This document shows, piece after piece, positions 1 to 41,242 of a DNA stretch of 52,355 nucleotides. Where the stretch lies: the IMG/VR virus record IMGVR_UViG_3300020183_000108, positions 1-52,355 of that record. One strand, written 5' to 3'. Source of the stretch: a virus (lineage: Duplodnaviria; Caudoviricetes). The position numbers were made by a program, and so were the translations under genes. Within the stretch, counting starts at the first letter, position 1. Each line of letters starts with the position of its first letter. Under the pieces are notes generated by a model, which worked only from the letters and a program-made list of their open reading frames with translations, searched no databases and was not told where the DNA came from.

Positions 1-2
1 AG

Positions 3-131: not shown

Positions 132-135
132 GTTG

Positions 136-306: not shown

Positions 307-318
307 AGGAGAACGACC

Positions 319-486
319 ATGTCTGCTGCTTTATGGATGGCGCTAGCTCGTCATATCCTGACTGCTGTTGGGGGTGTTCTTGTGGCTAAGGGCTACACGG
401 ATGCCGATACAGTAAACACCGCCGTTGGTGCAGCCGTTACCCTGGGCGGTATCGGCTGGTCCTTCGTCGAAAAGAAGCAGCGGTGA
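319..486 (+). CDS. Putative holin (two TM helices, Pam3-gp28-like)
   Basis: AGGAG SD at 307-311. Translation MSAALWMALARHILTAVGGVLVAKGYTDADTVNTAVGAAVTLGGIGWSFVEKKQR*. Directly precedes the endolysin. Confidence 0.75.
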   Translation: MSAALWMALARHILTAVGGVLVAKGYTDADTVNTAVGAAVTLGGIGWSFVEKKQR

Positions 487-495
487 GCATCCGCT

Positions 496-1023: not shown

Positions 1024-1178
1024 TGAAGGGTAAGATGAAGGCCACCAGTAAGGGTAAGATGGGCATGGCCAGCTACAAGAAGGGTGGCATGGTCGGCGGG
1101 TTTAAGCCCTGCCCCGGTTGCCCGACGCCGGGTAAGTGCCGCGCTGCTGGTAAGTGCTTGGCGAAAGCAAAGAAGTAA
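1020..1178 (+). CDS. Small basic Lys/Gly-rich protein with four Cys (possible Zn binding)
   Basis: ATGA overlap with the endolysin stop. Translation MMKGKMKATSKGKMGMASYKKGGMVGGFKPCPGCPTPGKCRAAGKCLAKAKK*. Confidence 0.7.
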   Translation: MMKGKMKATSKGKMGMASYKKGGMVGGFKPCPGCPTPGKCRAAGKCLAKAKK

Positions 1179-1184
1179 CCACTC

Positions 1185-3608
1185 GTGCCAGCAGTTAAGA
1201 TCACCAAGTTCCTCGGGACAACTCCGAAAAACGCTTCGGAGTTGTTACCCGATACTGCTGCGCAGATTGCAGAGAACTGCAAGCTGTACTCCGGTGATCT
1301 TATCCCCTACCCCACGCCGGTTATCGTGGGGGACGCACATCGTACGGGTACCATCCGCACGCTCTATGCTCTGCGGGACCCGGATACCAATGACCCCGTG
1401 TGGCTCACATGGAACGATGTTGTTGATATTGCCACCCCGGCCACAGACGAAGCGGGTGAGCAGCGGTTCTACTATACTGGCGACGGCGCACCGAAGGTCA
1501 GCACCTACGACTTGGCCACACAGGGGTCCGAACCTTACCCCAATGGGTATTACGATCTTGGCCTGCCGTTGCCTACAGTTAAGCCGACCTCGGTAGCCAC
1601 GACGTTTACACCGGTCACCACTTCATCTTTCGCCCGCGCCGCAGGCAACAACGTCACCCTGGTAACAAGCGCGGCCCACAATTTGAAGTCCGGTGCCATC
1701 ATTACGGTTTCGGGGTTTGCGTATCGCACCGGGACATACAGCCGCACAGGCACACTCATCACGGTGACGATCACCGGGCACGGACTTTCCAGCGGTTCTG
1801 ATGTCCTGCTCAAGTTCACATCTGGCACCGCCACGACCAACACCTATACCATCACGGTGACGGGCACAGACACCTTTACCTGCAACGACACTGCTTCGGG
1901 TTCGACCAGTGGTGATGTGAGCTGGGATATTGGCGATCTGAACACCACCGCAGAAGTGACGGTCATCAACTCAACGACCATTAGGTACTTCTCACCCGGT
2001 CCGACTGTTACCACCACGTCAAGTTCGGCAGGTACGGTTGATCTTGGCGGGCAGATTCAGTCGCGCAACTACCTCTACACTTGGTACACAGGTTGGCAGG
2101 AGGAGTCGATTGGTTCCGAACCCTCAGACGCCCTGTTTATCAAGGAGGGGCAAACTGTTACTGTTGGCACGCTACCCACGCTGCCGCCTTCGGGCAATAA
2201 TTTCATCCGTGGTATTCGGCTCTACCGCACCCTTGCAGGGACGACGGATGCAGAGTATTTTCGGTTAGCTACGCTCCGGTTCCCCAACACCATCACGACC
2301 GTGGAGCGTACTAGCAACGTCTCCATGGTAACTTTTGAGTATCCACACCAGTTATTCAAGGATGACCGCTTCAAGATCAGCGGGTGTAGTGTGGCGTCGT
2401 TCGACATCACGGGCGGTATCGTTACCGAAGTCGTTGACCAATACACGATTGAGTACGCTCAGACGGCTTCAAACGTCACTTCAACGACCGCCACTGGCAC
2501 GCTCTACTATGATGTGTCTGAGAACCCGCCAACGACCACGGCACGGTATTGGGGCGACGGCGGTATTTACGACTTCACGGATGACTTCAGTTTCCGGTCA
2601 CTTACCAGCATTCTACAATCCAACGATTACAATGCGCCACCCGAGGGGCTTCAGGGTCTGACGATTATTCAGAGTAGCATCCTTGCGGGGTTTGTTGGGA
2701 ACACACTCTACCTGTCTGAGCCGGGTGTGTTTCATGCGTGGCCACAAGCCTACGTCAAGACCTTTGATAGCAATATCGTGGGACTCGCTCAGATCGGTGG
2801 TAACCTGTTGGTTCTGACCGAGGGCTACCCGTATATCCTGTCAGGCTCAAACCCCGCGGTTATGTCGCAGGCCCGGTTGTCGGCGCGCTACCCATGCCTT
2901 AATCGGCGTAGCATCGTTGAGACCAGTTTCGGCGTTATCTACTCTACCCATGATGGTTTGGCGATCTATGCACCTTCATCGTCAGCGCAGCTTCTGACCC
3001 GTTTGATCCACAGCAGCGACACATGGAATGCGTCGCTTGACCCCGATACATTGGTGGGTGTGACGTTCAAGGATACATACATCGCGTCCTCTGATACCGG
3101 TTCGATTGTGTTGGAGCCCGGCACCGGGCAGAACGTCGGCACCTTTGTTGATAATGCTTTCACCTTCACCGCCGCGTGGTATGATAATATCACAAACAAC
3201 TTATACGTTGTATCTGGCACCAACGGTGATATTTATCAGTGGGATGACGCCACTCAGCCCAACTCAACCATGCGGTGGAAGTCAAAGACCTTCATCACCA
3301 AGGACTTCACGAACGTCGGTGCAGCTCGCATCGTTGCGGATTACACAGGCGTGGCTGGGTCATCCTTCTGGGAAGATGTTGATACCGCATGGAACGTGAC
3401 CGAAGAACTGTGGGATGCGGCTGACCCGATTACCTTCAAACTATACGTGGATAAGAACCTCATCTTCACCACAACACAGTCCAATAGTAGCCTATTCCGG
3501 CTACCATCGGGGTATAGAAGCGATACCTTCGAGGTAGAGATTGAAAGCCTTGTTCGGGTTCGTGCGATCCATTTGGCTGACACACCAACTGGTCTGAGGA
3601 CAGCGTAA
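1185..3608 (+). CDS. Tail nozzle / stabilisation protein (tail tubular protein B-like) with inserted Thr-rich beta-domain repeats
   Basis: 807 aa. LLPDTAAQIAENC N-terminus, LYLSEP-HAWP and MRWKSKTF-FRLPSG C-terminus. Position before ejection genes. Confidence 0.75.
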   Translation: MPAVKITKFLGTTPKNASELLPDTAAQIAENCKLYSGDLIPYPTPVIVGDAHRTGTIRTLYALRDPDTNDPVWLTWNDVVDIATPATDEAGEQRFYYTGDGAPKVSTYDLATQGSEPYPNGYYDLGLPLPTVKPTSVATTFTPVTTSSFARAAGNNVTLVTSAAHNLKSGAIITVSGFAYRTGTYSRTGTLITVTITGHGLSSGSDVLLKFTSGTATTNTYTITVTGTDTFTCNDTASGSTSGDVSWDIGDLNTTAEVTVINSTTIRYFSPGPTVTTTSSSAGTVDLGGQIQSRNYLYTWYTGWQEESIGSEPSDALFIKEGQTVTVGTLPTLPPSGNNFIRGIRLYRTLAGTTDAEYFRLATLRFPNTITTVERTSNVSMVTFEYPHQLFKDDRFKISGCSVASFDITGGIVTEVVDQYTIEYAQTASNVTSTTATGTLYYDVSENPPTTTARYWGDGGIYDFTDDFSFRSLTSILQSNDYNAPPEGLQGLTIIQSSILAGFVGNTLYLSEPGVFHAWPQAYVKTFDSNIVGLAQIGGNLLVLTEGYPYILSGSNPAVMSQARLSARYPCLNRRSIVETSFGVIYSTHDGLAIYAPSSSAQLLTRLIHSSDTWNASLDPDTLVGVTFKDTYIASSDTGSIVLEPGTGQNVGTFVDNAFTFTAAWYDNITNNLYVVSGTNGDIYQWDDATQPNSTMRWKSKTFITKDFTNVGAARIVADYTGVAGSSFWEDVDTAWNVTEELWDAADPITFKLYVDKNLIFTTTQSNSSLFRLPSGYRSDTFEVEIESLVRVRAIHLADTPTGLRTA

Positions 3609-3958
3609 TGTCACGCTTTACAGGCATCCCCGAGATACCGCAGGGCGGTATTGACGAGTGGCAGTATCGCGTTCTTGATGCGATGAAGCAGAATGTTGAG
3701 CTGTTGACCAACACCCGGAACGAAGAAGATCAGGCCAGCGTGGCTATTACGCGGTCGAGTATCTCGACTCGTCCTCCCGGCGCCGCTCAGTTCCAGGGGC
3801 TGTCGGCTCGCGGCACGGGGTTCACCATCAGCGGTGTTCAGGTCCCGTCTCTTGACGATTACAACGCACTCTTGCAGGACTTTATCAGGTTGAGTCAGGA
3901 TGTGGCCAACCTCCGTTCTACCGTCTCAACGCTTATCACCCAGATAAGGGGGCTATGA
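3608..3958 (+). CDS. Virion-associated protein (hypothetical)
   Basis: 116 aa ORF coupled to both neighbours, with a C-terminal coiled coil. Confidence 0.65.
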   Translation: MSRFTGIPEIPQGGIDEWQYRVLDAMKQNVELLTNTRNEEDQASVAITRSSISTRPPGAAQFQGLSARGTGFTISGVQVPSLDDYNALLQDFIRLSQDVANLRSTVSTLITQIRGL

Positions 3959-4722
3959 TGTCATACTCCACCACGTCGCTTGACCTGCCCCCGGCATTGG
4001 CAAGCCTGCTTGCTCCGACTGCTGCACCGGCTATGGGGCCGGGCGGTATCGCCACTTCTGCTATGGGCAACCGCGCCGCTATGATGGGTTCTGCTGCTAT
4101 GCCCACATATCAGATGGGCGGGATGGTCGGCCCCGGCGGTATGCCGATGCGGCCTGATATGGGTATGGGTAGCGCCATGGGTGGTATGCCCGGTCTGGCC
4201 CCTGCTGGCGCAATGCAGCAAACCCTTACTCCGGGTCAGGTTTCCGGCGAAGTTCAACGGTTTGTGCAGCAGAACCCCGACCAAGTGAACCAGATTCGTA
4301 TGCAGATTGAGCGGTTTGTTCAGTCCGGTCAGGTTACGCTCCAAGAACTAAATATGATGGTTCAGATGGCGCAAGCTGCGGCTAGTAACCCAGCACTTTA
4401 CAAACAGCTTCGTATGATCGCCATTCAGCGCGGGTTGGCTACAGCCGATGAGGTCAGTGAGGAGTTCGACCCCGGCCTCATTTTTGTTCTGCTTTTGATC
4501 GGTTCTGCTATGCAGTCTGGTGGTATGCAGCCGGATGCTATGCCTTCTTTGAAGAAAGGCGGGATGCTTCCTAGGAAGGCGGCTGATGACGGCGAAGCCG
4601 TGGTTGCTCAGCTTCATGAAGGTGAGTACGTCATCCCGGCCCACATTGTCCGGGCCAAGGGTACCGAATTTTTCGACAAGATGTTGCAGACGCACAAGCA
4701 ATCCAATGACTCGGACGATTGA
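3955..4722 (+). CDS. Internal virion protein with Met/Gly-rich N-terminus and a C-terminal xxGG...LHEGEYVIP domain
   Basis: 255 aa. The C-terminus LKKGGML...LHEGEYVIPAHIVRAKGTEFFDKM resembles the motif at the end of lambda-type tape measure proteins. Confidence 0.6.
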   Translation: MMSYSTTSLDLPPALASLLAPTAAPAMGPGGIATSAMGNRAAMMGSAAMPTYQMGGMVGPGGMPMRPDMGMGSAMGGMPGLAPAGAMQQTLTPGQVSGEVQRFVQQNPDQVNQIRMQIERFVQSGQVTLQELNMMVQMAQAAASNPALYKQLRMIAIQRGLATADEVSEEFDPGLIFVLLLIGSAMQSGGMQPDAMPSLKKGGMLPRKAADDGEAVVAQLHEGEYVIPAHIVRAKGTEFFDKMLQTHKQSNDSDD

Positions 4723-5134
4723 GCATCTGACCCCTGCCCGGGTTGAGGAGTTATGGCCCTACATAGAGCCGCTCCTCTACCACGTGGATTACGAGGGTAT
4801 CGACGCCCCCAATCCTATAAACCCTGAGTACGTGCGAACTACGGCTCGGTATGGTGTGACCAACATCTTGGGGATATTTGACGGAGAGCATCTGGACCTG
4901 ATCGTGGTCTCCGAATTTGCTATTGTGCGCGGGGTCAAAACTGCTAGTATTTCAGCCATGGCTGGTAAAGGGTTGTTGAAGGCTCGTTCCGAGGTTTGGC
5001 AGGACATTCTGGCGTGGTTCAAAGCCGCAGGTGCTTGCGCTGTGGACGCATATGCGAAACCAAGACTTGCTAGGATATACCAGCAAAAGTTTGGCTTTGA
5101 TCAGGGTTGTTCCTATATACGTATGGAACTTTAG
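4706..5134 (+). CDS. GNAT-fold-like virion assembly protein (position analogous to T7 gp13)
   Basis: In-frame ATG at 4706 (MTRTIEHL). ISAMAGKG and ARIYQQKFGF resemble a degenerate acetyltransferase fold. Lies before the ejection proteins. Confidence 0.55.
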   Translation: MTRTIEHLTPARVEELWPYIEPLLYHVDYEGIDAPNPINPEYVRTTARYGVTNILGIFDGEHLDLIVVSEFAIVRGVKTASISAMAGKGLLKARSEVWQDILAWFKAAGACAVDAYAKPRLARIYQQKFGFDQGCSYIRMEL

Positions 5135-5143
5135 GAGGGTAGC

Positions 5144-6403
5144 ATGGGTGGTGTAGGTAGAGGTGTTAGCCGAGCACTCTCTTTGAATAGGGGCGGTACG
5201 CTCAGCAATGCTCTTGGGGGTCCTCAAGGTGTTGCTGCCGTTATCGGTATTGCCGCTGCAATCGCCATACCCTTTGCTCTACCTGCTGTTGCAAGTACGC
5301 TTGCCACCTCTCTCTCCATTTCGCCCCTTTTGGCTTCCACGCTTGCGGGCGCCGGTATGGGCGCGGCTGCGGGTGCCTTGTCCGGCTCGATGGTCGGTAA
5401 TGTTGGGACTGGCGCATTGATTGGCGGCGCGGGCGGCGCTGCCAGTGGGTTTATACAGGGAGGCGGGATTAGCCAAGTCGGTAATGCGCTGTTTGGTCCT
5501 ACCACCCCTGCTCCTACCACCCCTGCTGTTACCACCCCTGCTGCTGCCTTCGGCGGCGCGCAGGGATATGAAGCCTTAGCTGCCCCTGCCGGTGGGTTTG
5601 AGTCTGCTGCTGCGACTGGCGGCGGTTTTGCTGGTGGTAGCACGCCTCTTACAGCGGCAGAGGTAATGGCGACTCAAGCCATACCAGCATCCGGTATAGG
5701 CAGCGGAGCAACTTCTTCTGGCGGCACGGCAGGTAATCCCATGCAACAGACGACTACTAGTTTTGCTCCCCAAGGTTCTAGGGTCGAGCGTTTCCTCGGT
5801 GGCCTTACGGGTAGCGGCACAAAGATGGACCTCACCACGGCTGAGGGTGTGGGCCGTGCGCTATCTCCGATTGTCAGCCCCGCTGGCATCGCCGGTGTCG
5901 GGCAGCTCGCCATGACAATGTTCAACAAGCCGACTGAAAGCCTGACCGCACAAGAGCGGTCTTTCGTCAATGAGACGGCTGAGCTTGCTGGTACCAACCG
6001 GGCTTTGTTTGAGCAGCGTGTGAACTCCGCGCGCCGCCTGTTGCAGCAGGGCACACCCAATCCCGAAGAAGCCTACGCTCAAGCCAGCATGGGTGTGCAA
6101 CGCCGCTTCCGCGAAGCCGGTCTGCGTGAGACCGGTGACGTTCGGCGTGGTCTGATCGAAGGTGCCCGCCTCGGCGCTGCGGCTATCCCAGGTGAGTATA
6201 CTCGGGCTGCTTCGCTTACCCAGGCCGGTCTGTCGGCTATGCCATCAACCGCGCCGCAGGGTGCCGAAGGCATGGCGCTTCCGGTGTATCGCGATCTTGA
6301 ACGCCGTCAGCGTGAGTATCAAACTGATCTTAGCCGTGGGTTCGGTACGCTCGCGTCGGCGTTCGGTGGCCGTTCTAAGGGTGGGTTGTTCGGTTACTAT
6401 TGA
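5144..6403 (+). CDS. DNA ejection (pilot) protein with glycine-zipper hydrophobic N-terminus
   Basis: AGGAGG SD. 419 aa, Gly/Ala-rich with TM-like segments. Synteny with podophage ejection genes. Confidence 0.65.
   Translation: MGGVGRGVSRALSLNRGGTLSNALGGPQGVAAVIGIAAAIAIPFALPAVASTLATSLSISPLLASTLAGAGMGAAAGALSGSMVGNVGTGALIGGAGGAASGFIQGGGISQVGNALFGPTTPAPTTPAVTTPAAAFGGAQGYEALAAPAGGFESAAATGGGFAGGSTPLTAAEVMATQAIPASGIGSGATSSGGTAGNPMQQTTTSFAPQGSRVERFLGGLTGSGTKMDLTTAEGVGRALSPIVSPAGIAGVGQLAMTMFNKPTESLTAQERSFVNETAELAGTNRALFEQRVNSARRLLQQGTPNPEEAYAQASMGVQRRFREAGLRETGDVRRGLIEGARLGAAAIPGEYTRAASLTQAGLSAMPSTAPQGAEGMALPVYRDLERRQREYQTDLSRGFGTLASAFGGRSKGGLFGYY
5498..5542 (+). repeat. Three copies of a 15-bp coding repeat (PTTPA-PTTPA-VTTPA)
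   Basis: cctaccacccctgct, cctaccacccctgct, gttaccacccctgct. Confidence 0.9.
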
Positions 6404-6418
6404 CCTTCGGAGGTCTGC

Positions 6419-8428
6419 ATGTCTGGTTATCTATATCCCTACGCTCCATACCCTACTGCTGGAAACTTGCAGTCTGCTGGGCAAGCGTTCCTTGGCGGTT
6501 TCGGCGCGGGTCAGGAGATCGAGTCCCGCGCTCAGGACATGGATGTAAAGAACCAGCTTCAGAAACTTCGGCAAGCTGAAGAAGAACGTCAGCGGCAGGC
6601 ATTTCCGTTGCGGATGCAACTGGCTGAGCAGCAGATGAAGTTTGCCGCACAGAACCAGCCTCTGACCCTTGAGCGGATGCGTCTGACCAACCAACAACTG
6701 CAAGCCAGCCTTGCGGCTCTTGCTCAGCAGCGTGCGGCTGCGGCGGAACTTGCAAGGCTGTATGGTCCGTCCGGAAGCGGTGCAGGTGTGATGCCCTCCG
6801 CTGCTGCTCCGCAGCCTGCGGCACCTCCTCCCCTTGCGCCGCCAGTTCAAGGGTATCCCGGCCTTCTGGAACCATACACACCACGTGCGGTTGCGCCCGC
6901 AGCGCCTCGGTTTGCACCTTATGGGGAAGAAGCACCCGGCCCGCGGTCTAACCTTGATTTTGGAGTTCAGCGGTTTGGTGACCGGGATTTCGGTCGCCGC
7001 TTTACCGGTGTTCAGGTCGCCAGTGGCGGCATCAATGTTGACACGGGCCTTCCCGCAGGTGTGACACCTGAAATGCTGGAGCCGGATTACCAGCGGTATC
7101 CGCAGACAGGCTACCCCGTAGGGCCGCAGGAAGGCCCAAGCCCAACTGCACCAGGGGCGTTACCCGCCGCACTGCTACCTCCTGAACAACGTGCTGGCGC
7201 TGTGGCGCCTGTTATAGCACCTCCGGCACTTCCTTCACCCACTGGTCGCCTACCATTGGTCAGACCCGATATAATACCTTCCCCCAGCAGCCCACGCCTT
7301 ATGGATGCTGCAGTTGCTGAACTGTCTGCCAGTCCGTCTTTGCAAACCCCGGATGTGGTTCAGCGGGTTGCGGGTCAGTATGGGGTTGACCCTAATGTCC
7401 TTGCTCAGCGCCTTGGTGTTACATTACCTGCACAAGCTGCCGCGCCCCAAACTACCGCAACTGAACAGGCACCTTACGGAGAAAACGCACCCGGTCTCGC
7501 CGGTGCTATCCCGGCAATAGACTACACACCCGCTCCGACTGAGGGTCCGGCGGGTTTGCGCCAGCAAGGCGCACCTACCCAGCAGCAGGTTGATGCTGAC
7601 GTCGCCAGGCGCCTAAACAACTTGACCACCGAAACGCCTGATCCGCTGTCACCTATGGACTCGTATCGGGTGGGTGTTGAGTCGCGTGCATTGGATATTG
7701 AAGCGCGTAATATCGAAGTTGCTACACGTAGGATTGATGCTATGCGGCGTGAAGCCGCAATCTTGGCCCGAGGCGGGAACACCCAAGGGGCCATTGCGAT
7801 AATGACCAGTGTTCGTAATGCCGAAGCCGAACTTGAAGCCAGGAGTTCTGCTCTGGCGCTTCAGCGTGCCAACCTGAATGGCCGTATCAATACATCTGAG
7901 TTTGCGGCTGGCAACTTTGGTCCTATGGCCAATGACATCTTCCAGGCATCGGGCGGGCGGTTGCGTTTACAACCAGTTGCGGGGACCGATAACTTCAATC
8001 TTATTGGTCCAGATGGTCAGGTGCGTGGCACCCGGACACGGCAACAACTGATCAACGATGGCCGTTATTTGTATGAGACAAACTACCAAAACCAGATAAA
8101 GGCCATTCGCGAACGTCTCGTTAAGCGTTCCGATGAGATATTCAAAGCTACCGCCGCTGCACTTGAGCAGAGCCTCAAGGATACCAGTGCTGCAACACGC
8201 GACATTGCGATTGAGCGTGCCAAACAACAAGCCGAAGCTGCATACCGTGCGTCTGAAATCAAAGTTACAGTCGACACGCAGAATGGTTTGATTATCTTTC
8301 AAGACTCTCGGGGTATCATCCCACGCCGTATTCTGCGGGTGGTTCCGGCGCGTGATGCGCGCGGTAGGCCAATACAGGGGCAGTTTGCCACCGAAGAAGT
8401 TGAAGCGCAGGCTCGGCCAGCTCAGTAA
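6419..8428 (+). CDS. DNA ejection / internal virion protein
   Basis: GGAGG SD. 669 aa with Gln-rich coiled coils flanking a Pro/Ala-rich middle. Confidence 0.6.
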   Translation: MSGYLYPYAPYPTAGNLQSAGQAFLGGFGAGQEIESRAQDMDVKNQLQKLRQAEEERQRQAFPLRMQLAEQQMKFAAQNQPLTLERMRLTNQQLQASLAALAQQRAAAAELARLYGPSGSGAGVMPSAAAPQPAAPPPLAPPVQGYPGLLEPYTPRAVAPAAPRFAPYGEEAPGPRSNLDFGVQRFGDRDFGRRFTGVQVASGGINVDTGLPAGVTPEMLEPDYQRYPQTGYPVGPQEGPSPTAPGALPAALLPPEQRAGAVAPVIAPPALPSPTGRLPLVRPDIIPSPSSPRLMDAAVAELSASPSLQTPDVVQRVAGQYGVDPNVLAQRLGVTLPAQAAAPQTTATEQAPYGENAPGLAGAIPAIDYTPAPTEGPAGLRQQGAPTQQQVDADVARRLNNLTTETPDPLSPMDSYRVGVESRALDIEARNIEVATRRIDAMRREAAILARGGNTQGAIAIMTSVRNAEAELEARSSALALQRANLNGRINTSEFAAGNFGPMANDIFQASGGRLRLQPVAGTDNFNLIGPDGQVRGTRTRQQLINDGRYLYETNYQNQIKAIRERLVKRSDEIFKATAAALEQSLKDTSAATRDIAIERAKQQAEAAYRASEIKVTVDTQNGLIIFQDSRGIIPRRILRVVPARDARGRPIQGQFATEEVEAQARPAQ

Positions 8429-8440: not shown

Positions 8441-11400
8441 ATGGCATCAGGTCTTTACTATGCACCGCTTGAGTTGGCAGAGAGCTTGGCTATGCCGGTT
8501 GCGCCGGAGAGCACTACACAAGCCTCTGGTTTGGGTAATCTCGGTGCTGCCGGTGATGTGTATGGCATCACCACTGTCGGCGGGAACGCCGGTGATATTT
8601 ATGGTCTCACACAGCAAGCTATGCAGAGGACCGCTGGGCTTGCACCTCCACTCCCGGCGCCGCCCACGGCAGCACCCGAAGGAACCGGCGCCGCTTTCTA
8701 TAGCCCGTCCACTGGTAAGATGTTCGCCGGTGGTATGGCGTTTGACCAGCGTGATGTTCAGTCGGCGCTTCGCGCAGCGCAGCAGTTTACCGCAGCCGCG
8801 GGTACTCGCCCTCCTCCAGATGTGCCTGACTGGCGACCCATATCGCGGGTGGCATATGAGAACTATCTTACTGGTTTGAGTGCCCCTCGCGGTTTCGGTG
8901 AGAACCTCGTACTTGGTGCACGCGGCGCTGTTGGTGGGTTTATCAGCGGTATTGGTCGCGGTGCTGAGATGCTTGGTGCCACTACGGTGGGTCCGGCTAT
9001 TGCAGGTGTTGGTGAAGCCATCACGGGTCAGGATGAATTTGACAAGCAACGGTCGGCGCTGATTCAACAGTCTAATTCGCTTGTCAGCAATATCCTTGAT
9101 GCTGCTGTGCAGGGCATCCCATCTGTCGCAATGTCAGCCGGTGCCGGTCTTGTGGGCGGTATCGTAGGCGGTGCCGTTGGCGGTCCTGCCGGTGCCGCTG
9201 CTGGTGCTACCACTGCCGCTACTGCGGCCCAAGCAGGTCGAGCCTTGGCTGCTGCGCGTGGTATCGGCGCTGTTGTTGGCCTTGGTGCGGTCAGCTTTCC
9301 TCAGCAACTCAATACGTTCTATGAAGCGGCGCAGAACGCCAGGGATGCGCAGGGTCGTCCGGCCTATGATGTAAACGACCCAAATGTTCAGCTTACCATC
9401 GCCGGTGCTGCTCTTGGTACATCGCTGCTTGACGTAATCGCCCCGGGTCGCGTCGCGTTTGGTCTATCTCGTGCCCTCACTGAAGGCGCTCAGCAGGCTG
9501 GGACTCAGGCCCTCACCGGGTTGGCCCGAGCCAGGGCAGTCGGCGGGAGCGCAGCTCGCAGCGGGTTTGAAGAAGCTGCCACTGAAGCCGCGCAGACCTT
9601 GGCTGAGCGGGCTGTATTTGACCCTGAGTTCCGTCGGCAGCTCAACGCCGAGGACATGAAGGCGCTTGCCCCATACATCGTCAACACGTATGGCCAGGAT
9701 GTTCTCATCGCAGCCGGTGCCGGTGCGCTTCTTGGTGCTGGATTCGGTGGTGCCGGTCGCTTCATCGAGACAAGGGGTGCAGGTTCTCAGCCGCGTGATA
9801 TCCTCGACCCGAAGCAGACCACTGCTGTTGGTGGCACGGATGCAGGCGAGACTGGTACCGAGCCCACAACCATAGGCGGCCCTCCTCCGGGTACTCCTCC
9901 GGGTACTCCTCCGGGTACTCCTCCGGGTACTCCTCCGGGTACGTCCGGCGTTTCTACTCGCGTTGTTTCTACCTCCCCCGGCGCACTCACTATTGCCCCT
10001 GGGGCTATGGATTTAACGCAGACCGGTTATCTCCAGGCATATGCGCGGCGTATGCCTGATCCCCTTGGTGTTGCCGGTTTTGGTGGTGCGGATGATACGT
10101 TTAATCGTATGGTTTCAGGTCCTGCGCCGGGTACCGAAGCCCCGCTGACATCTTATATCTATCCGGGGCCTATTCTTACTGAGCCCGAACTGACCACTCA
10201 ACCTCGCACTCCACTCAACGTAATCCCGGGTGCTCCTGCTGTTGCACCGTACACACCAACACCTACGGCACCTATTCCATCAGGGTCTCAACCGATTACT
10301 TTGGTGGCGCCGGGGGCCGACGCCCTTCGCGCACAGCGCGGGCTGACAGCTACGGCGCAGCAACGGCAGGTCGAGCAAGACATCCAATCTCGGGTGCAAG
10401 CCAACGCGAGTGCGCCACGTCCTGATGTTCTGTACGATCCGGCTGATCCTGGCACCACTCAACGTGCCATGCGGTCTCTCGGGGTTTCCATTGAGGAAGT
10501 GCTTAGGTTGCGCGACCCTATGCGCGCTATGGCTGGTGCGCCGGTTACGCTTAGGGATGTTAACGAAGCTGCGGCTTTGCTTGGCCGCACCCGCGCCTCC
10601 GGTGCTGTAGCGGTTCGCCCTACCCCGGAAGTGTCTTCCATTATGGCACAAGCCATGCGGGATGCCGGGCTGACTGTTGAAGATGTGGTAGCGGCACGCA
10701 ACCGCCTACGCAGTGGCCCGGTTACTTATGAAGATGTGCGCATTGCTGCCCGGCGCAAGGGTACGGAACTACCGGTTCGTATGGCTCGGACTGCGGCCCC
10801 TGAGCCTATGGTTGAGACGGCTCTCCCTCCTGCGCTTGAAGCACTTGCTGCGGCCCCTACGCCTACGCCTACGCCCGCAACCAAGCTCAAGAAAGGAAAA
10901 GCTCGTGCCGCTCAAGTCAGGGAAGACGAACAAGGTGGTGTCGGCCAACGTACAGGAACTGGTGGACCGGTACCAAGCAAAGGGGAAGATCGGCTCAAGT
11001 CGACCAAAAAACAAAGAGGCGGCGGTCAAACAGGCCGTAGCAATCTCACTCGCCAAGGCCGGGCGGCAGCGCAAGAAGTAACACCTGCACCGGCCACGGA
11101 GGTGGCCGCTCAGCGCCCTTTAGAGCAGCCCGCGCCAAGCGCGACAGAAAGAGCGGCTCCATCCGTAACTCCAAGGGCTGAGGCTGCGGCACCAAGTGCG
11201 GTAGATCGTCAGATCACCCGGGCGGCTACCAGTGCCGACCCGACGGCACAGCTTCGTACACTGAAGAATGAACTGATCACGCGGCGCGACGCGACCGCTG
11301 ATGCTGGTCGCAGTACGACTGAACTGACCGGCGCAATTGCGCGTATTGATGCGCTGCTTGCCGAAGGCCCGATCACCACACCGGCTGTCGAAGGTGTGTC

Positions 11401-14400
11401 CGGTCCGGGTTCACCGCAGTCCGTCTGGGCTTCGGCCATGAACGATGATGGTGTTGGTTACACCCAGATGTCTGAAGATGGTCGCCGCGCTTGGGATAAC
11501 GAAGTGGCTACCAGTCCTGTGCCGCCCACTGCGGAACGGGCTCAGTATTACCAAGACACGTTTCTGCCCCAAGATACCCAGCGCGGCATCAGTTACGTGC
11601 GCAGCCTTGCCAGCAAGCTGGCATCTGCCAGCGATGAGCGATACATTCAGATCACTGAGAAGCTGAGTGAGTTGGCCAGCTCTGATAACCAACGTGTTGC
11701 CGCTGAAGCGCAGCGTGCCCTGGATGGTGAACTATCTGGTACGCCCGGTAAGTTCTCTCTTGCCGGATGGAATACCCGTCAGGGGACGGTCAGCGCCGAT
11801 GGTTCACCCACCACACCGATGGCTGTCGGTCGGGTGCGGATGCTTGTCAATAACTTCGTAGCTAAACTGGCAACCAAACCGAAGGTCACGGTGGTGGCCA
11901 ACCAGCAGGAACTACAGCGCACCAACCCGGCGCTGTATCAGCAAGCCATGGCTGCTCGCCCGCAGGGTGACTTCGCCACGGCCAACGCTGCTGGGTACTC
12001 CTTCGGTGACGGCAACGTCATCATCTTCACTGACCGTATTGTCAATGAGCAGCACCTGCGGTTCGTGCTGGCCCATGAGACCTTCGGCCACTTCGGTATG
12101 CGCGGGATCATGCCCGCAGCGCGCTTCGATGCGCTTATGGAAAACATCTATGAGACAGATGGAAGCGCCAAGCTGGCAGTTGATGCCGCTATGGAAGTGC
12201 GCGGGCTGAGCAAGGCCGAGGCCGTTGAGGAGTATCTATCTGACTACGCTGGGCTGCTTGAGACCAGCACGGTTGCCCGGGTGTGGAACACTATCAAGGG
12301 CTTCCTTGAACGCCTCGGTGTGAAGTTCGGTGATACAGCCACTCGGTACTTCCTTGACCAGTCGCGCCGTTATGTGCGGCAGGGTGCCCAGGGTGTGACC
12401 TTTGATGCAGAGGCGGTGGCAAAGCGGCTGCACGCTGTTGAGTACGGCGATACCGGCACTGGCCGGTTCAGCCCGCAGGCAGCGATGAGCGCCAATGCGA
12501 AGGCCAACTTCTTCGCATCACAACTGGCCGAGTTTCCGACAAGCTTGGCTGATGCTTGGAACACAATCACCGACCAGAAAGAGAATATAGCTGATATATA
12601 CACGGACTTTAAGAACAAGTTCCTCAGCCTTGCAAATTACACCGGGTTGAAGAATCCGGGGGCATTCAAGTTTGTCGATTTATTGAGCCAGACCAATTCA
12701 AAATCTATGGCAGTTAAGTCAGCATTAAATGAATACCTGCGCCCTGTGCTCGATGCTCCCAAGGCTGTGCAAGATAAAATCTCACGCGCCATGTATAGTG
12801 CACGTAGTTACAAGATCAGTCAGTTCAAAGCCGGGGAACTCGGCAAAGAACCTCTGTTCAAGGTTGCTGCTGATGGTAGCCTCACCCCAAATACGGCTGA
12901 GCAAGATCGGATTTTCAAAGCCGGTCTGATGACACTCAAGCAGATTCAAGATGGCTACTCGTACAACCGTGAGATCGAAGGTACTGATGGTAAAGTCACC
13001 ACGGTAGAGGAAACCGTGGCCGGTCAAAAGGACTTCACCAAAGAAGATTACGCTTTGTACGAGCGTACTCGGCGCGCTGTATTCAATGTTGAGATGCAGC
13101 TACTCGAAGCCGAGTATGGCGAGCTCATGGCTAATAAGCGCCTGACCAACAAAGAAATCAGTGGGTTCATGGCAGATAACAAACTCACTGCTGAGGATCG
13201 TCGCTTCGTTGATTCTATGGCACGCCGCGCACTGGCTCTCTACACCGAGGGTGCCGGTACTGACCCCACAGGTAACGCTGTGATTGACCCGAAAGCCATG
13301 AAGAAGTCCGATGATTTCTTGGCCGCTGTTAATACTGCGGTGATCGGCACTGATACAGACCGCACTGAAGCGCCCGATGTCAAAACCGGCTTGAGGATAC
13401 GCGACTACTTTGTTTCGCCGCAGGCGGCTGATGCGTTCATCACTGAGCTGACCGCGTTTAAGAATCGTCGTCGGGAGATCACTGATGACAATAGGTTCTT
13501 CCTACAAGGGAAAGTGAAGCAACTCATTCTCAACGAACACAACCTGAACACCAGGGATAAGATCGCACGCCGCGCTGTGATGACCGGATACACCCCGGTG
13601 TTGCGTGAAGGTAGGTTTCAGACCCGCGTTCAGGCATATGTTGGTAATAAGCTCGTTGAGGTAAAAGACGCGCATAAGGCGCTGCTTTCCTACTCTCAGT
13701 TTAACACCGGGCCAGAAGCTAAAGCTATGGCTGTAATGCTCGATAAGGAGTTCGAGGGTAAGACGTTTGAGGTTTTGGTACGCAATGACGCCGGTGAGTT
13801 TGTGCCCACCAGGGTGACGCTTCGTGCTACGACCGGGCGCACAGTGAATGCCGTAGCCGCTGATCCACAGCTTAACCTACAAGATTTCCTGTATGGGCTG
13901 AACCTGTTCAACGTAAATCTCAACCCGGAGAGCATGGCACGTATTGTTACTACGCTGTCGCGTCAGGGTGATAGCGCACGCAGGCGGTTGGAGTACTCTC
14001 AGACCCCCGGTTTCGATCCAACCACCGGTGTCTATGCCATCTCACGGCATATTGAGGGTCGTGCTTCCACCATTGCTAAGGCCAGCACGCGGCAGGCGCT
14101 GCGCGAACTGATGAACCTCGAACTCCCTGAATCACGCACCCTGTGGACGGGTAACAAGCCCCTGGTAGATCAGTTGCAGGCTGAGTTGAACAGACTCAAT
14201 GCCGACCCAAATGCGTCCGAGGATGCCAAGCGGTACACGCTGCAACAACTCACACAGGCGCAGTATCAATACCGCATGACCAACCCAGAGGGGCGTCCTG
14301 AACGCTCTATGATGTTCTATAACCAGTCTGCCTCCACCATGGACTACCTTGAGGGCAGCAAGTATGTAGATGAGACCGACTTCGGCGCAGGTCCTGTTGC

Positions 14401-15982
14401 TTCTCGGGTCCGTGCTTACACCAGCATATGGCAGCTTGGCGGCAGCATGGCTCAGGGTGTCCTGAACCTGATCAGCCCGTACACTAACTGGATGCCATAC
14501 ATGGCTAGCTTCAATGCAAAGAGCGGCTTCGGTGGCGGGTTCAGTATCGGTAAGGTGCAGGCAGCTTACCACTCAGCTTTCCGTCAGGTGGGTGCGCCGG
14601 GTATTCTCCGCATGGAGATGAACCGGGCTGAGTTCTATGACAACGTGGCCAAAGACCCAGCCCTCCAAAAGAAACACGGTCTGACGGTTGATGAAGCTCA
14701 GGCAATCGCCACTGAAATCCGTGAAGGTAAGCTGATTCCGGCGCAGTCAAATGCACTCATTGCCACTGCGCGGGGGCAAACAACCAACAAGTTTCTGCGT
14801 AAGTTTATCGACGGGTACATGCTCCCGTTTAACTTGTCCGAACAGGCGGCCCGTCGTGCGGCTTTCTTGGCTGCGTACCGCTTGAAGCGGGATCAGGCCC
14901 TCGGCGCCGGTAAGTCTCAGAAGGAAGCACAGCAGGAAGCAAGTGACTTCGCGGTGAAGTCCATCGACCTGACTTTAGGGGATTACTCGGTTCTGAACCG
15001 GCCACCCGCGTTCCGGGCTGGCATCACATCCTTCCTCTATATGTACAAGACGTACCCGACCACCACGATCCAGTTACTGGCCAATCTGTCCCGGCCTGCG
15101 CAACTATCCATGCTGGCAGGGCTGTGGTTCCTTTCCGGCGCTGCGGGTCTGCCGTTTGCTGAGGACCTTGAAGACCTTATTGATACCATCTCGCAGAAAC
15201 TAGGGTTCCGGCAAGGTAGCATCCGGGGTGAGATCATCAAGCACATCGAGGCTACGTTCCCTGGCATGTCAGCGCCGTTCCTCAAGGGCTTGGTAAATGA
15301 GTTCCTGCCAATACCCATGGACATCGCTTCTCGTACTTCTGTTGGTAACATCGTCCCTGGTTCTGGGATTGCCTTGGCTGGGGCAGATGTGGGACGTGAA
15401 GTTCTTGATATTCTCGGCCCCGCACCCGGTTTCCTCCTCGGCGCCGCTTCGATGGCGCGTAACTTGGTGGCGTTCCCGTTCTCGTCACGGGTAAGCCTGG
15501 AAGATGTGGCCCGGGAATCGCCGATCACCCTGCTCCGGTTAATGGGTGACTCGTACGCTTACCTACAGTCGGGTGCCGTGGTTGACCGCCGTGGGTATGT
15601 GGTCAGTAAGGATATGGATGCGGGGACCATTCTTACTCGGTTGTTTGGTTTCTACCCCACGCAGGCGGCAAACCAGTACGATGTTATCCGCATCGCCAAC
15701 CGCACCACTGACTACCAGAAGGAAGCCGTGGCTTCGTTCCGTCACGCTTGGATCAAGGCTACCCTGCGCGGTGATACGCAGACAGCCAACGAGATCATGA
15801 ACGACGTGCGCGAATGGAACAACGCCACACGCGGCACCCCACTGGAAATCAGGAACTTCTCAACTGGTAACGCCAGGGCATTGCGTGAGGCTCGGCGGTC
15901 AGCGAGTGAGCGCGCACTGCGCGCGGCACCCCAGGCAGCACAGGGAGACATCCGGGGGTATATCGACGCCCTGATCGATTAG
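8441..15982 (+). CDS. Giant ejected polyvalent protein with zincin metallopeptidase domain
   Basis: 2513 aa. N-terminal glycine-zipper/TM region, LAHETFGH...AVEEYLS zincin motif at 12074-12091, and a C-terminal helical region typical of large podophage ejection proteins. Confidence 0.8.
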   Translation: MASGLYYAPLELAESLAMPVAPESTTQASGLGNLGAAGDVYGITTVGGNAGDIYGLTQQAMQRTAGLAPPLPAPPTAAPEGTGAAFYSPSTGKMFAGGMAFDQRDVQSALRAAQQFTAAAGTRPPPDVPDWRPISRVAYENYLTGLSAPRGFGENLVLGARGAVGGFISGIGRGAEMLGATTVGPAIAGVGEAITGQDEFDKQRSALIQQSNSLVSNILDAAVQGIPSVAMSAGAGLVGGIVGGAVGGPAGAAAGATTAATAAQAGRALAAARGIGAVVGLGAVSFPQQLNTFYEAAQNARDAQGRPAYDVNDPNVQLTIAGAALGTSLLDVIAPGRVAFGLSRALTEGAQQAGTQALTGLARARAVGGSAARSGFEEAATEAAQTLAERAVFDPEFRRQLNAEDMKALAPYIVNTYGQDVLIAAGAGALLGAGFGGAGRFIETRGAGSQPRDILDPKQTTAVGGTDAGETGTEPTTIGGPPPGTPPGTPPGTPPGTPPGTSGVSTRVVSTSPGALTIAPGAMDLTQTGYLQAYARRMPDPLGVAGFGGADDTFNRMVSGPAPGTEAPLTSYIYPGPILTEPELTTQPRTPLNVIPGAPAVAPYTPTPTAPIPSGSQPITLVAPGADALRAQRGLTATAQQRQVEQDIQSRVQANASAPRPDVLYDPADPGTTQRAMRSLGVSIEEVLRLRDPMRAMAGAPVTLRDVNEAAALLGRTRASGAVAVRPTPEVSSIMAQAMRDAGLTVEDVVAARNRLRSGPVTYEDVRIAARRKGTELPVRMARTAAPEPMVETALPPALEALAAAPTPTPTPATKLKKGKARAAQVREDEQGGVGQRTGTGGPVPSKGEDRLKSTKKQRGGGQTGRSNLTRQGRAAAQEVTPAPATEVAAQRPLEQPAPSATERAAPSVTPRAEAAAPSAVDRQITRAATSADPTAQLRTLKNELITRRDATADAGRSTTELTGAIARIDALLAEGPITTPAVEGVSGPGSPQSVWASAMNDDGVGYTQMSEDGRRAWDNEVATSPVPPTAERAQYYQDTFLPQDTQRGISYVRSLASKLASASDERYIQITEKLSELASSDNQRVAAEAQRALDGELSGTPGKFSLAGWNTRQGTVSADGSPTTPMAVGRVRMLVNNFVAKLATKPKVTVVANQQELQRTNPALYQQAMAARPQGDFATANAAGYSFGDGNVIIFTDRIVNEQHLRFVLAHETFGHFGMRGIMPAARFDALMENIYETDGSAKLAVDAAMEVRGLSKAEAVEEYLSDYAGLLETSTVARVWNTIKGFLERLGVKFGDTATRYFLDQSRRYVRQGAQGVTFDAEAVAKRLHAVEYGDTGTGRFSPQAAMSANAKANFFASQLAEFPTSLADAWNTITDQKENIADIYTDFKNKFLSLANYTGLKNPGAFKFVDLLSQTNSKSMAVKSALNEYLRPVLDAPKAVQDKISRAMYSARSYKISQFKAGELGKEPLFKVAADGSLTPNTAEQDRIFKAGLMTLKQIQDGYSYNREIEGTDGKVTTVEETVAGQKDFTKEDYALYERTRRAVFNVEMQLLEAEYGELMANKRLTNKEISGFMADNKLTAEDRRFVDSMARRALALYTEGAGTDPTGNAVIDPKAMKKSDDFLAAVNTAVIGTDTDRTEAPDVKTGLRIRDYFVSPQAADAFITELTAFKNRRREITDDNRFFLQGKVKQLILNEHNLNTRDKIARRAVMTGYTPVLREGRFQTRVQAYVGNKLVEVKDAHKALLSYSQFNTGPEAKAMAVMLDKEFEGKTFEVLVRNDAGEFVPTRVTLRATTGRTVNAVAADPQLNLQDFLYGLNLFNVNLNPESMARIVTTLSRQGDSARRRLEYSQTPGFDPTTGVYAISRHIEGRASTIAKASTRQALRELMNLELPESRTLWTGNKPLVDQLQAELNRLNADPNASEDAKRYTLQQLTQAQYQYRMTNPEGRPERSMMFYNQSASTMDYLEGSKYVDETDFGAGPVASRVRAYTSIWQLGGSMAQGVLNLISPYTNWMPYMASFNAKSGFGGGFSIGKVQAAYHSAFRQVGAPGILRMEMNRAEFYDNVAKDPALQKKHGLTVDEAQAIATEIREGKLIPAQSNALIATARGQTTNKFLRKFIDGYMLPFNLSEQAARRAAFLAAYRLKRDQALGAGKSQKEAQQEASDFAVKSIDLTLGDYSVLNRPPAFRAGITSFLYMYKTYPTTTIQLLANLSRPAQLSMLAGLWFLSGAAGLPFAEDLEDLIDTISQKLGFRQGSIRGEIIKHIEATFPGMSAPFLKGLVNEFLPIPMDIASRTSVGNIVPGSGIALAGADVGREVLDILGPAPGFLLGAASMARNLVAFPFSSRVSLEDVARESPITLLRLMGDSYAYLQSGAVVDRRGYVVSKDMDAGTILTRLFGFYPTQAANQYDVIRIANRTTDYQKEAVASFRHAWIKATLRGDTQTANEIMNDVREWNNATRGTPLEIRNFSTGNARALREARRSASERALRAAPQAAQGDIRGYIDALID
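9884..9943 (+). repeat. Five copies of a 12-bp tandem repeat encoding (PPGT)5
   Basis: cctccgggtact x4 followed by cctccgggtacg. Confidence 0.95.
10905..11081 (+). CDS. Nested (+1 frame) small basic phage protein of the MPLKxG...KQAVAI type
   Basis: AAGGA SD at 10893-10897, then GTG. Translation MPLKSGKTNKVVSANVQELVDRYQAKGKIGSSRPKNKEAAVKQAVAISLAKAGRQRKK*. Resembles a widespread standalone phage gene. Confidence 0.72.
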   Translation: MPLKSGKTNKVVSANVQELVDRYQAKGKIGSSRPKNKEAAVKQAVAISLAKAGRQRKK

Positions 15983-39172: not shown

Positions 39173-41242
39173 ATGCCAGGACTTACCATACTCCGCGTCG
39201 TCAGCAACAGTGAGATCGAACGCGCTGAGCGTGAACGTATGGATGCCGAGCTTCAGGCTCGGCAAAACAGCGATCTCATCACGGGTTTTTCAGCGTACCT
39301 CAAGACGTGTTGGGATGCTGCGCGTATTGCCAAGGACCCGATCAACGATGTGATGCTCAGAGCTCTCCGTCAGCGCAACGGGGAGTATGAGGCGGATAAA
39401 CTTCAGGCGATTCGCGTTCAGGGCGGGTCTGAGGTTTACATGATGCTGACGGAAGTCAAGTGCCGTGCAGCAGAGAGTTGGCTTCGTGACATTCTTCTGG
39501 ATACCGGCTCGCCCCCCTGGGACATGCAACCTACGCCGATTCCTGACTTGTCCCCCGAACAGTCAGAGGAGGTTCAGCTCGCCTTTGCTGAGCAGGTGGT
39601 AAATATCATCCAATCCACCGGTCAGGCGCCGGACAAGACCCAGATGCTGGAACTCAGGGAGATGGTTTCCCAGGACTACCGGTTTAAGGTCTTGCAGGCC
39701 GCTCAAGCGCGCGTTGATCGGATGAAGATCAAGATTGATGACCAGTTTGCTCAGGGTGGTTGGGCCGATGCGTTCAACGAGTTCCTGACCGATCTGGTAA
39801 CCTTCCCCTGCGCCTTCCTCAAAGGGCCTATCGTGCGCCGTCAGCGCCACTTGGGTTGGGCCAAGGGTCCCGGAGGTGCGACCACCGTAGAAGCCGCTGA
39901 GCGGCTTGCGCCGGAGTTTGAGCGGGTCAGCCCATTCAATATCTACCCCGAGCCGGGTATCACCCGAATCAACGACGGGTATATTTTCGAGCATCATAAG
40001 CTGAGTCGGTCAGCACTGGCTGATCTTATCGGCGTGCCCGGGTATGATGATCAGGCGATTCGCAAGGTACTTAATGAGGGGCCAAGCCAGACCTGGGTGT
40101 CTGAGCCGACCGAGATGCAGCGTGAGGAGGAGGAGCGCAAATACTATACCGAGTTGCGCCCGACCGATATGTTCGATGCCCTTGAGTTCTGGGGTAAGGT
40201 CAGCGGCAAGATGCTTCGTGAGTGGGGCATGGATGCTTCTGAGGTACCTGATGAGGCCAAGGAGTACGATGCAAACGCTTGGCTTGTGGGCAATTATGTC
40301 ATCAAAGCCATCCTCAACTACGATCCATTGGGTGAGAAGCCCTATGTAAAGACCTCGTTCATCAAGATGCCGGGTGCCTTCTGGGGTCGCGCTATCCCAG
40401 AGATTATTGAGGATTTGCAGAATGTCTGCAACGCCGCCGCCCGGGCCTTGGTGAACAACATGAGCATCGCTTCCGGCCCACAGGTCGAGGTGAATCTTGA
40501 GCGCATCCCGCCCAACGAAGACATCACGCAAGTTCACCCTTGGAAAATTTGGCAGACGCTGAACGATCCCCTGGGTTCTTCTGCCCCGGCGGTCCGGTTC
40601 AACCAGCCGAACGACAATGCCGCCACCCTGATGGGTGTGTACGAGCGGTTCAGCCGACTGGCTGATGACCATTCAGGCATTCCGGCCTACATCTACGGTG
40701 ACACCAACGTGCAGGGGGCTGGGCGCACGGCTTCTGGCTTGTCGATGCTTATGGGGTCGGCGGGTAAGAGCATTCGGCAAGTGGTGATGCACATTGATTC
40801 GGATGTCACCAAGCCCATTGTTCAGCGTCAGTTTGTTTACAATATGCGTTACGATCCTGATGAGTCCATCAAGGGTGACGCGCAAATTATACCCCGCGGT
40901 GCTATCAACCTCGCGGTTCGTGAGACAGTCAACCTCCGGCGTGTTGAGTTCCTCAATGCTACTGCCAATGAGTTTGATATGCAGATTATTGGGGCTGACG
41001 GGCGTGCAGCCATCCTACGCGAAGTGGCTAAGGGGCTTCAGATGCCTGCCGAGGACATCGTACCCTCCCGTGAGCGGTTGGATTATCAGGCCCGAGTGCA
41101 GGCCCTTGGTCAACAGGCGCAGCAAGCCGCTTCAGCTCAACAGGGTGGTGCGGCCCCAAGGACGCTCGATCAGGCCGGTAATCCGGCGGGTGGCGCAGCG
41201 GCTACGGTAGTACGAAACCAGAACACGGGTACCGCAGGTTGA
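39173..41242 (+). CDS. Portal protein
   Basis: 689 aa. ERVSPFNIYPEP, GAFWGRAIPE, NNMSIASGPQ and GRTASGLSMLM. Position between terL and scaffold. Confidence 0.9.
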   Translation: MPGLTILRVVSNSEIERAERERMDAELQARQNSDLITGFSAYLKTCWDAARIAKDPINDVMLRALRQRNGEYEADKLQAIRVQGGSEVYMMLTEVKCRAAESWLRDILLDTGSPPWDMQPTPIPDLSPEQSEEVQLAFAEQVVNIIQSTGQAPDKTQMLELREMVSQDYRFKVLQAAQARVDRMKIKIDDQFAQGGWADAFNEFLTDLVTFPCAFLKGPIVRRQRHLGWAKGPGGATTVEAAERLAPEFERVSPFNIYPEPGITRINDGYIFEHHKLSRSALADLIGVPGYDDQAIRKVLNEGPSQTWVSEPTEMQREEEERKYYTELRPTDMFDALEFWGKVSGKMLREWGMDASEVPDEAKEYDANAWLVGNYVIKAILNYDPLGEKPYVKTSFIKMPGAFWGRAIPEIIEDLQNVCNAAARALVNNMSIASGPQVEVNLERIPPNEDITQVHPWKIWQTLNDPLGSSAPAVRFNQPNDNAATLMGVYERFSRLADDHSGIPAYIYGDTNVQGAGRTASGLSMLMGSAGKSIRQVVMHIDSDVTKPIVQRQFVYNMRYDPDESIKGDAQIIPRGAINLAVRETVNLRRVEFLNATANEFDMQIIGADGRAAILREVAKGLQMPAEDIVPSRERLDYQARVQALGQQAQQAASAQQGGAAPRTLDQAGNPAGGAAATVVRNQNTGTAG

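Follow-up and report, generated by a model that had tools for sequence, protein, structure and literature searches.

Can a complete phage gene, with a start and a stop of its own, lie wholly within a much larger gene, and can it be the older of the two? This question is raised by a virus record of 52,355 bases (IMGVR_UViG_3300020183_000108, Duplodnaviria; Caudoviricetes), estimated to be 95% complete and referred to throughout as the window. In the window a giant open reading frame (ORF) of 2513 amino acids (aa) runs, on the same strand, across an ORF of 58 aa. The first-pass annotation had proposed that this is a true dual-coding region, and homology, nesting in all covering relatives, stop avoidance and the pattern of selection in the two frames support that proposal. 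Positions 10905-11081 are very probably read in two frames, giving on the one hand a spacer of the giant protein and on the other a 58-aa basic protein. Ribosomes entering at 8441 would read through the small gene, and the overlap would become a disordered, freely evolving spacer between conserved N- and C-terminal parts. Other ribosomes would initiate at an internal Shine-Dalgarno site and GTG to make a strongly basic two-helix protein. The arrangement would have come about when an upstream gene lost its stop codon, so that its reading was extended over the small gene. We infer the translation of both products, the route of origin and the function of the small protein from sequence.

Layout of the nested gene

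The features on which the argument turns are as follows.

10893..10897, + strand: Shine-Dalgarno-like AAGGA, with a spacer of 7 nucleotides (nt; 10898-10904) to the start of the nested gene
10905..10907, + strand: GTG start codon of the nested gene, aligned with residue 1 of the family profile
10905..11081, + strand: nested gene, 58 aa, member of phrog_2423, net charge of about +12, predicted two-helix hairpin
10911..10913, + strand: Leu3 codon of the nested gene, CTC, which with the next AA gives CAA (Gln) in the giant frame
8441..15982, + strand: giant ORF, 2513 aa, final gene of the + strand structural block, reading through the nested gene
9761..11740, + strand: variable low-complexity stretch of the giant protein (residues of about 441-1100), containing the overlap

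On rechecking, the coordinates, frame and peptide first given for the AAGGA, the 7-nt spacer, the GTG and the 58-aa ORF inside 8441..15982 all matched. As (10905-8441) mod 3 = 1, the nested ORF belongs to the +1 frame, with the giant frame one base behind. The nested ORF ends with a TAA codon at 11079-11081 and lies entirely within 8441..15982, where the overlap corresponds to residues 822-881 of the giant protein. Read in the outer frame, the overlap was originally described as low-complexity, and its translation is indeed rich in Pro, Ala, Gly and Gln and sits in a poorly conserved stretch.

The stop-free run to which the nested ORF belongs spans 10692..11081, with the earliest possible start at 10713. 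Such runs are frequent in the giant gene, whose +1 frame contains 15 stop-free runs of at least 59 codons, together making up 51% of its +1 codons, and the length of the nested ORF by itself is within chance. Since open +1 runs are this common, the case rests on homology and conservation. The nested gene is the sole copy of a phrog_2423-type gene in the 52-kb virus record. A scan for sigma-70 promoters gave no site near the small gene, and the total number of sites was not above that in shuffled sequences.

Homologues and predicted fold of the small protein

The 58-aa peptide matched phrog_2423 at E 5.2e-9 (37 bits), with residues 1-58 lying on profile positions 1-43 of 52. A phmmer search of 1.84 billion cluster representatives returned 213 clusters at E<=1e-3, 20 of them at E<=1e-10, with a best E of 3.3e-14. 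Among the best 150 of the 213 clusters, nearly all were 54-271 aa in length and most were matched from their own residue 1. The sole large match (P0005, 2581 aa) was rejected as a repeat-protein false positive. Two annotated standalone homologues were found, one in Phage DSL-LC04 (57% identity), where the gene is directly behind the portal gene and overlaps its end, and one of 44 aa in Enterobacter phage phiEap-2. The first-pass annotation had taken the motifs MPLKxG and KQAVAIAL for those of a standalone small basic gene common in phage structural modules, and had expected standalone homologues in a BLASTp or profile search; the phrog_2423 match and the 213 clusters bear this out, and the homologues exist in large numbers.

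The window peptide carries the N-terminal M-P-L-K-x-G at its true start, as well as the K-Q-A-x-A-I-A helix. Across 42 family sequences Asn15 is invariant and P2, L3, G6, G27, G30, P34, A40 and A46 are nearly so, and the window peptide shares all of these residues. An AlphaFold2 model, made with the 42 family members as alignment, is a two-helix hairpin with helices at residues 9-26 and 37-52 and a mean predicted local distance difference test score (pLDDT) of 89. By homology, then, the peptide belongs to a widespread family of small basic phage proteins, phrog_2423, which it matches over its whole length and with which it shares the conserved residues and the predicted hairpin. It differs from the other members of the family in that the window copy is nested, and is not a separate gene overlapping the stop of the upstream (portal) gene.

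The Pfam scan of the window peptide gave no match, no PDB sequence matched the family profile below E 0.2, and a Foldseek comparison of the model with the PDB gave no match at E<=0.001. Against BFVD, the top Foldseek matches were short uncharacterised phage proteins at E of about 0.02, which are probably members of the family. Atlas neighbours of the small protein were viral clusters without names, one of which has DUF6496 on 17% of its members. Pfam DUF6496 (PF20106) is likewise a short basic protein, and 4 of the 42 family members match it weakly (best E 0.011). The window peptide itself does not match DUF6496 at E<=1, none of the family matches is significant, and a literature search found no mention of DUF6496. 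Because of its charge and the usual coupling of its gene to the portal gene, our best guess is that the small protein would be a late protein that binds nucleic acid or is associated with the head or portal.

Conservation of the nested arrangement in relatives

Searching viral contigs with the giant protein as query yielded 20 loci, 8 of which are fragments that start downstream of the region. All 12 contigs covering it (L003-L010, L012, L014, L015 and L022) carry the small ORF, at an unchanged frame offset and within an open giant frame. The small peptides of these contigs are 61-97% identical to that of the window, apart from the short variant in L010 (42%). Four contigs found later (L023, L028, L030 and L031) show the same nesting, which brings the total to 16 other contigs; the remaining loci of the later scans were contigs already counted. 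Stops in the +1 frame of close relatives, named at the outset as evidence that would speak against a gene, were thus seen neither in the 12 covering contigs nor in the four later ones. As a control, 12 further long runs in the +1 frame of the giant gene were followed in the 7 aligned relatives, and none of these runs is stop-free in all seven. In none of the 7 is the small ORF interrupted; the one stop counted in five of these relatives is its own terminator. In L012 and L009, the small peptide is 68-79% identical to that of the window and the best-matching segment of the giant protein 43-49%.

The signals for initiation are kept together with the peptide. The start codon is ATG or GTG in all 13 nested copies (ATG in L005, L015 and L022, GTG elsewhere), an interchange expected of a start codon but not of a codon within a gene. 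Every lineage has a Shine-Dalgarno-like site 6-10 nt before the start, despite differing surrounding sequence. With a generic anti-Shine-Dalgarno motif, the duplex energy is -5.6 kcal/mol in the window and ranges from -5.6 to -11.0 kcal/mol across 12 lineages, in each of which it is within the top 0.2-10% of positions of its own giant ORF. These features indicate that the nested gene would initiate independently.

Selection on the two reading frames

Avoidance of stops in the giant frame was assessed by resampling synonymous codons according to the codon usage of each giant gene. Across the small gene 2.9-6.5 giant-frame stops were expected and none was observed in any of the 13 sequences, the probability of finding no stop being 0.0003-0.031 per sequence. 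Lys, Asn, Glu and Ser codons are abundant in the small gene, and these give a giant-frame stop when they follow a codon ending in T. Both annotated standalone homologues show several stops when read in the giant-equivalent frame.

Substitutions tell the two frames apart. Variable sites were counted over 12 nested copies, with L010 omitted as its shorter form is not alignable without gaps, and 26, 15 and 41 of 52 sites at small-frame codon positions 1, 2 and 3, respectively, were variable. In 10 pairs, the ratio of non-synonymous to synonymous substitution rates (dN/dS) was 0.10-0.39 in the small frame, against a naive value of 1.8-15.7 in the giant frame, and over the same bases amino-acid identity was 60-90% in the small frame and 31-69% in the giant frame. 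Ten sequences (L010 and the near-duplicates L003 and L007 being omitted) were then analysed by an OLGenie-style count that takes the overlap into account, which gave an omega of 0.35 for the small frame (bootstrap confidence interval 0.24-0.51) and 1.49 for the giant frame (1.03-2.18). The comparison of dN/dS in both frames, which had been suggested as a check, accordingly came out in favour of the small gene, at 0.35 against about 1.5. On these substitution patterns, the amino acids of the small protein are under purifying selection, and the giant frame is selected here only to stay open. The latter is consistent with the place of the overlap in a variable spacer between conserved ends: mean pairwise identity is 0.11-0.48 in residues of about 441-1100 of the giant protein and reaches 0.5-0.76 in the flanking domains, with a local rise to 0.39-0.48 in the bins over residues 801-920, which span the overlap.

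The alternative that survives best, at what we consider a small probability, is that the small ORF is an untranslated relic of a swallowed gene, and that what looks like its conservation stems from constraint acting on the giant protein or the nucleic acid. It draws on several of the points that weigh against dual coding in general. No RNA run is listed among the runs carrying the stretch, and the phage is known only from lake-water metagenomes, in many of which the stretch is found. The Shine-Dalgarno site of the window is modest, being the weakest of the 12 (-5.6 kcal/mol, within the top 10% only), and its start codon is GTG; long +1 runs, as noted above, are common. Further, the small-protein family has no Pfam, PDB or significant fold match, the 13 or 16 nested copies are not independent, since many are close relatives and perhaps 8 distinct lineages are represented, and the giant-frame omega above 1 may partly reflect a bias of the simplified estimator. 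Against a relic, however, it is the third positions of the small frame that vary most, with an omega of 0.35, in a region where the giant frame is without amino-acid constraint. The start, the Shine-Dalgarno site and the position of the stop are kept even where the giant protein is only 43-49% identical, the other +1 runs decay in relatives, and the nested copy is the only one that this genome has of a widely kept gene.

A second alternative is that the small reading would be reached by a programmed +1 ribosomal frameshift, so that an N-terminal fragment of the giant protein would be made with the small domain at its end. Programmed frameshift products of the lambda G/GT or T7 10A/10B type are known. 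The idea is helped by the +1 frame being open for 64-71 codons before the GTG in the window and its closest relatives (L003, L004 and L006). However, the 64 codons from 10713 to the GTG translate like an off-frame read, and this upstream +1 translation is not conserved between lineages. Six contigs (L005, L010, L014, L022, L023 and L028) have an in-frame stop 12-15 nt before the start, which leaves almost no room for entry, and in contrast to the lambda and T7 cases there is no open alternative frame here up to a conserved slippery site. The ATG/GTG interchange, the Shine-Dalgarno-like site at 6-10 nt and the coincidence of the family N-terminus with the start codon also argue against a frameshift, which we regard as very unlikely, and in favour of independent initiation of the nested gene.

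Shorter forms and split points of the giant gene

Is the giant ORF itself one gene? Full-length relatives of the giant protein measure 2171-2647 aa, and shorter forms exist as well. With the first 817 residues of the giant protein as query, ten proteins 713-1014 aa long were found. Eight of these (P0153-P0158, P0160 and P0162; 812-1014 aa) consist of the N-terminal part, the outer-frame reading of the overlap stretch and a conserved tail of about 40-100 residues. Of the other two, P0159 stops before the overlap stretch and P0161 continues into sequence of the C-terminal part. The tails of the eight, which the full-length giants lack, have a Cys-Leu-(Arg/Ser/Lys) motif near the C-terminus. Scans of viral, metagenome and genome contigs for the DNA of the short forms gave only full-length forms or nothing, and we infer the state of the small ORF in the short forms from their outer-frame sequence only. 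In one relative (L005, 775-7290; L024, 6995-13510) the giant ORF ends at window residue of about 2240; there, tblastn similarity runs on to residue 2513, placing the C-terminal 270 residues in a separate ORF or frame. The giant gene family is, to judge from these sequences, split at varying points. A recombination breakpoint at the small gene, suggested by one BLASTP comparison in which the similarity of some relatives to the window started precisely there, was rejected as other settings aligned the full length.

The N-terminal-only proteins of 812-1014 aa, which come from other metagenomes, and the ORF end at residue of about 2240 in L005 and L024 could be taken to mean that the N- and C-terminal parts are made separately with the small gene between them, so that the open outer frame would be meaningless. 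This we find hard to credit, for the outer frame has no stop in any of the 13 copies where 2.9-6.5 were expected, and the short forms also cross the overlap into a conserved tail, which makes the outer reading part of a protein there. The same forms bear on how the giant ORF came to enclose the small gene. The first-pass annotation had held that the small gene is ancestral and that the giant ORF reads through it, perhaps by fusion of two flanking genes. The first part of this proposal stands, as discussed below; fusion of flanking genes is not needed, given that the short forms read through the overlap and on into a conserved tail.

Assembly and gene calling

Misassembly of the region had been raised as a concern, and independent contigs show none. 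Contigs of other runs are identical to the window, with no base differences, insertions or deletions (indels), over 10300-11154 (X6) and 10300-11024 (X7), and contigs of four other runs have no indel in 10300-11700. An assembly or sequencing artefact, in which an indel would have shifted a domain of the giant protein out of frame, has nothing in its favour and next to no probability, as the frame relation is the same in 16 other contigs from separate assemblies, no indel is found in the four other runs, and a single indel would break the giant frame too.

The window small peptide is not among 15 billion called proteins. That standard gene callers would miss the nested gene holds in most cases, with 6 of 9 nested peptides absent from these proteins; the 3 that are present stem mostly from gene calls on short contigs, which are likely to truncate the giant ORF. 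This amounts to an annotation gap, in which a widespread phage gene seems to be missing from the clade of the window though it is present. One 59-aa member of a nested-type cluster (P0172) was called as a gene on contigs of up to 56.6 kb, which is about the size of the contigs carrying the short N-terminal-part forms.

Usual context of the small gene and a proposed origin of the nesting

A degenerate DNA pattern built on two conserved motifs, and allowing ATG starts only, identified at least 120 viral loci (L034-L153). Among the matches listed, to which all counts in this paragraph refer, 119 of the 120 other homologues are not enclosed by a long ORF on the same strand. In 72 of the 120, the first 60 nt of the small gene contain the end of another ORF, which is read two bases ahead and is either long or runs to the locus edge. 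The overlap is of 11 nt in 62 of the 120, where the upstream TAA consists of the third base of the Leu3 codon plus bases one and two of the Lys4 codon, and Leu3 is CTT in 76 of the 120. Four of six upstream ORFs tested are portal proteins (phrog_1216), and the 11-nt overlap suggests that the small gene may be translationally coupled, mostly with the portal gene. Portal-adjacent homologues (e.g. L041, 8348-8617) have a conserved C-terminal tail, K-M-x-x-G-G followed by V-K-K-K-D-G-N-R-P-V-K-I-Y, which the nested copies are without.

Relative to the small gene, these upstream genes occupy the very frame that the giant gene uses across the nested copies. At the spot of the TAA, the giant frame of the nested copies reads Gln, Glu or Lys, and the third base of Leu3 is never T, so that one change leaving the small protein unaltered would have removed the upstream stop. 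A plausible model for the origin of the nesting, and a simpler one than fusion, is that an upstream gene lost its stop codon; this would provide a concrete route to engulfment, as the lost stop lies inside the first four codons of the next gene. Further stops in the upstream frame would also have had to vanish. Two observations tell against the model, namely that the upstream part here is not a portal protein and that no intermediate was seen as DNA.

Since the family is widespread and almost always un-nested, and the outer reading is confined to the giant genes and is not conserved as protein, the small frame is, on this comparison, the older reading and the outer reading of the overlap is derived.

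A second giant gene enclosing a homologue

Among the 120 pattern matches listed, the one nested copy (L059) belongs to a virus record of 75.9 kb (G001). Here an ORF of 2912 aa (L160, 6956-15694, - strand) holds a small homologue of 55 aa (13891-14058, - strand) in its +1 frame at residue 546, and the homologue has its own Shine-Dalgarno site and an ATG start. Further along the 2912-aa ORF, the L059 fragment shows an HExxH-like motif, HEYVHG. Compared by BLASTP, the 2912-aa protein and the window giant are similar only across the overlap (E 0.011), and a profile comparison with eight giants of the window clade again found only the overlap (40 columns, probability 33%). This overlap-only similarity of the two giant proteins comes from their sharing the small gene. 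The 2912-aa protein has no PHROG match, and the search for its relatives returned only the gene itself. The stop-avoidance test in G001 is weak by itself (P 0.09).

On this evidence, the nesting would be either very old or have arisen twice. It is conceivable, if rather doubtful, that the small gene was engulfed at least two times by giant genes of the virion module, each time in the same frame, and that nesting is favoured, with both products acting together. Were the two events independent, production and inheritance of the small protein would be tied to those of the giant protein, e.g. in loading the giant protein and DNA into the head, or in their release. If this held, the TAA within Leu3-Lys4 would be a built-in weak point, repeatedly letting upstream genes extend over the small gene.

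Comparison with known overlapping genes

Nested genes are known in phages, the usual case being a new small reading within an old gene, and overlaps of the phiX174 type are examples of overprinted viral genes.

A formal parallel is offered by lambda Rz/Rz1 and other embedded two-component spanin genes. PMC6139136 describes Rz1 as embedded in the +1 frame of Rz, notes a bias of gene callers against genes of this kind, and names stop-codon loss in the upstream gene as one conceivable route to spanin-gene embedding. As in lambda Rz/Rz1, the small gene of the window is fully enclosed by a larger one on the same strand, in its +1 frame, and is usually missed by callers, its own initiation being suggested here by sequence signals only. 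In contrast to Rz/Rz1, however, the inner gene here appears old and widespread and has a confidently predicted fold, while the outer reading is young and disordered; the outer gene continues for 1,600 more codons; and the proteins are unrelated to spanins.

As set out in PMC8227390, the ancestral frame of overlapping genes is told by its wide phylogenetic distribution, and disorder is linked to the de novo frame, especially if this is shifted two bases 3' of the ancestral frame. The window resembles overprinted viral genes in having a widespread ancestral frame and a restricted, disordered one, under asymmetric selection, with a two-base 3' shift here too. It departs from them in that the contained gene is usually the new one, whereas here it would be ancestral and the container would supply the new reading as a spacer. 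The unusual point is the polarity of the overlap, in which an old gene is contained within what the comparison marks as a younger outer reading. The comparative data cleanly separate amino-acid constraint on one frame from mere stop avoidance on the other, and the case implies that real genes can be concealed in the disordered spacers of giant phage proteins. It also draws attention to a family of small basic, usually portal-coupled proteins as worth experiment.

The giant gene may be compared with those of polyvalent phage proteins, which according to PMC5512222 are injected with the DNA and processed by zincin-like peptidases. Judged against that account, the giant gene is similar in being very large and multi-part, in lying among virion genes and in encoding an invariant HExxH. 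It differs in that searches by Pfam, PDB sequence and fold assigned the giant protein no domain. The word 'overlapping' does not occur in the main text of PMC5512222. Among the titles and abstracts returned by literature searches, none reported a gene nested in an internal virion protein or polyvalent protein gene.

The giant protein and its genomic context

The giant protein matches phrog_11358 and phrog_21376, both without assigned function; Pfam returned noise only and the PDB sequence search gave no match. Its best conserved part surrounds the HExxH motif, which is invariant in all 8 aligned giants. The AlphaFold2 model of residues 1110-1400 is poor (pLDDT 55), and the fold search made with that poor model was not significant. 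That the giant protein would be an ejected polyvalent protein is reasonable but unproven; the label 'ejection protein' rests only on gene position and the HExxH motif.

The features of this wider context are the following.

12074..12091, + strand: HExxH motif of the giant protein (H1212, E1213, H1217)
37259, + strand: large terminase, start of the structural block
39173..41242, + strand: portal gene (Pfam SU10_portal, E 2.5e-12; phrog_332 and phrog_1216)
42542, + strand: major head protein, structural block
49193 onwards, + strand: tail-fibre-like genes, structural block
1185-3608, + strand: 'internal virion protein' gene, phrog_511, structural block
5144-6403, + strand: glycine-zipper protein, 419 aa (PF13436, E 5.5e-6, just under the curated cut-off)

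Unlike in its usual context in other phages, the small gene is not behind the portal gene here. The glycine-zipper gene comes after the gene for the internal virion protein and before the giant gene, which is itself followed by replication genes on the opposite strand. The structural block seems to leave the window at its end (49193-52354) and to resume at its start (1-8428), a wrap-around that fits a permuted, nearly complete genome.

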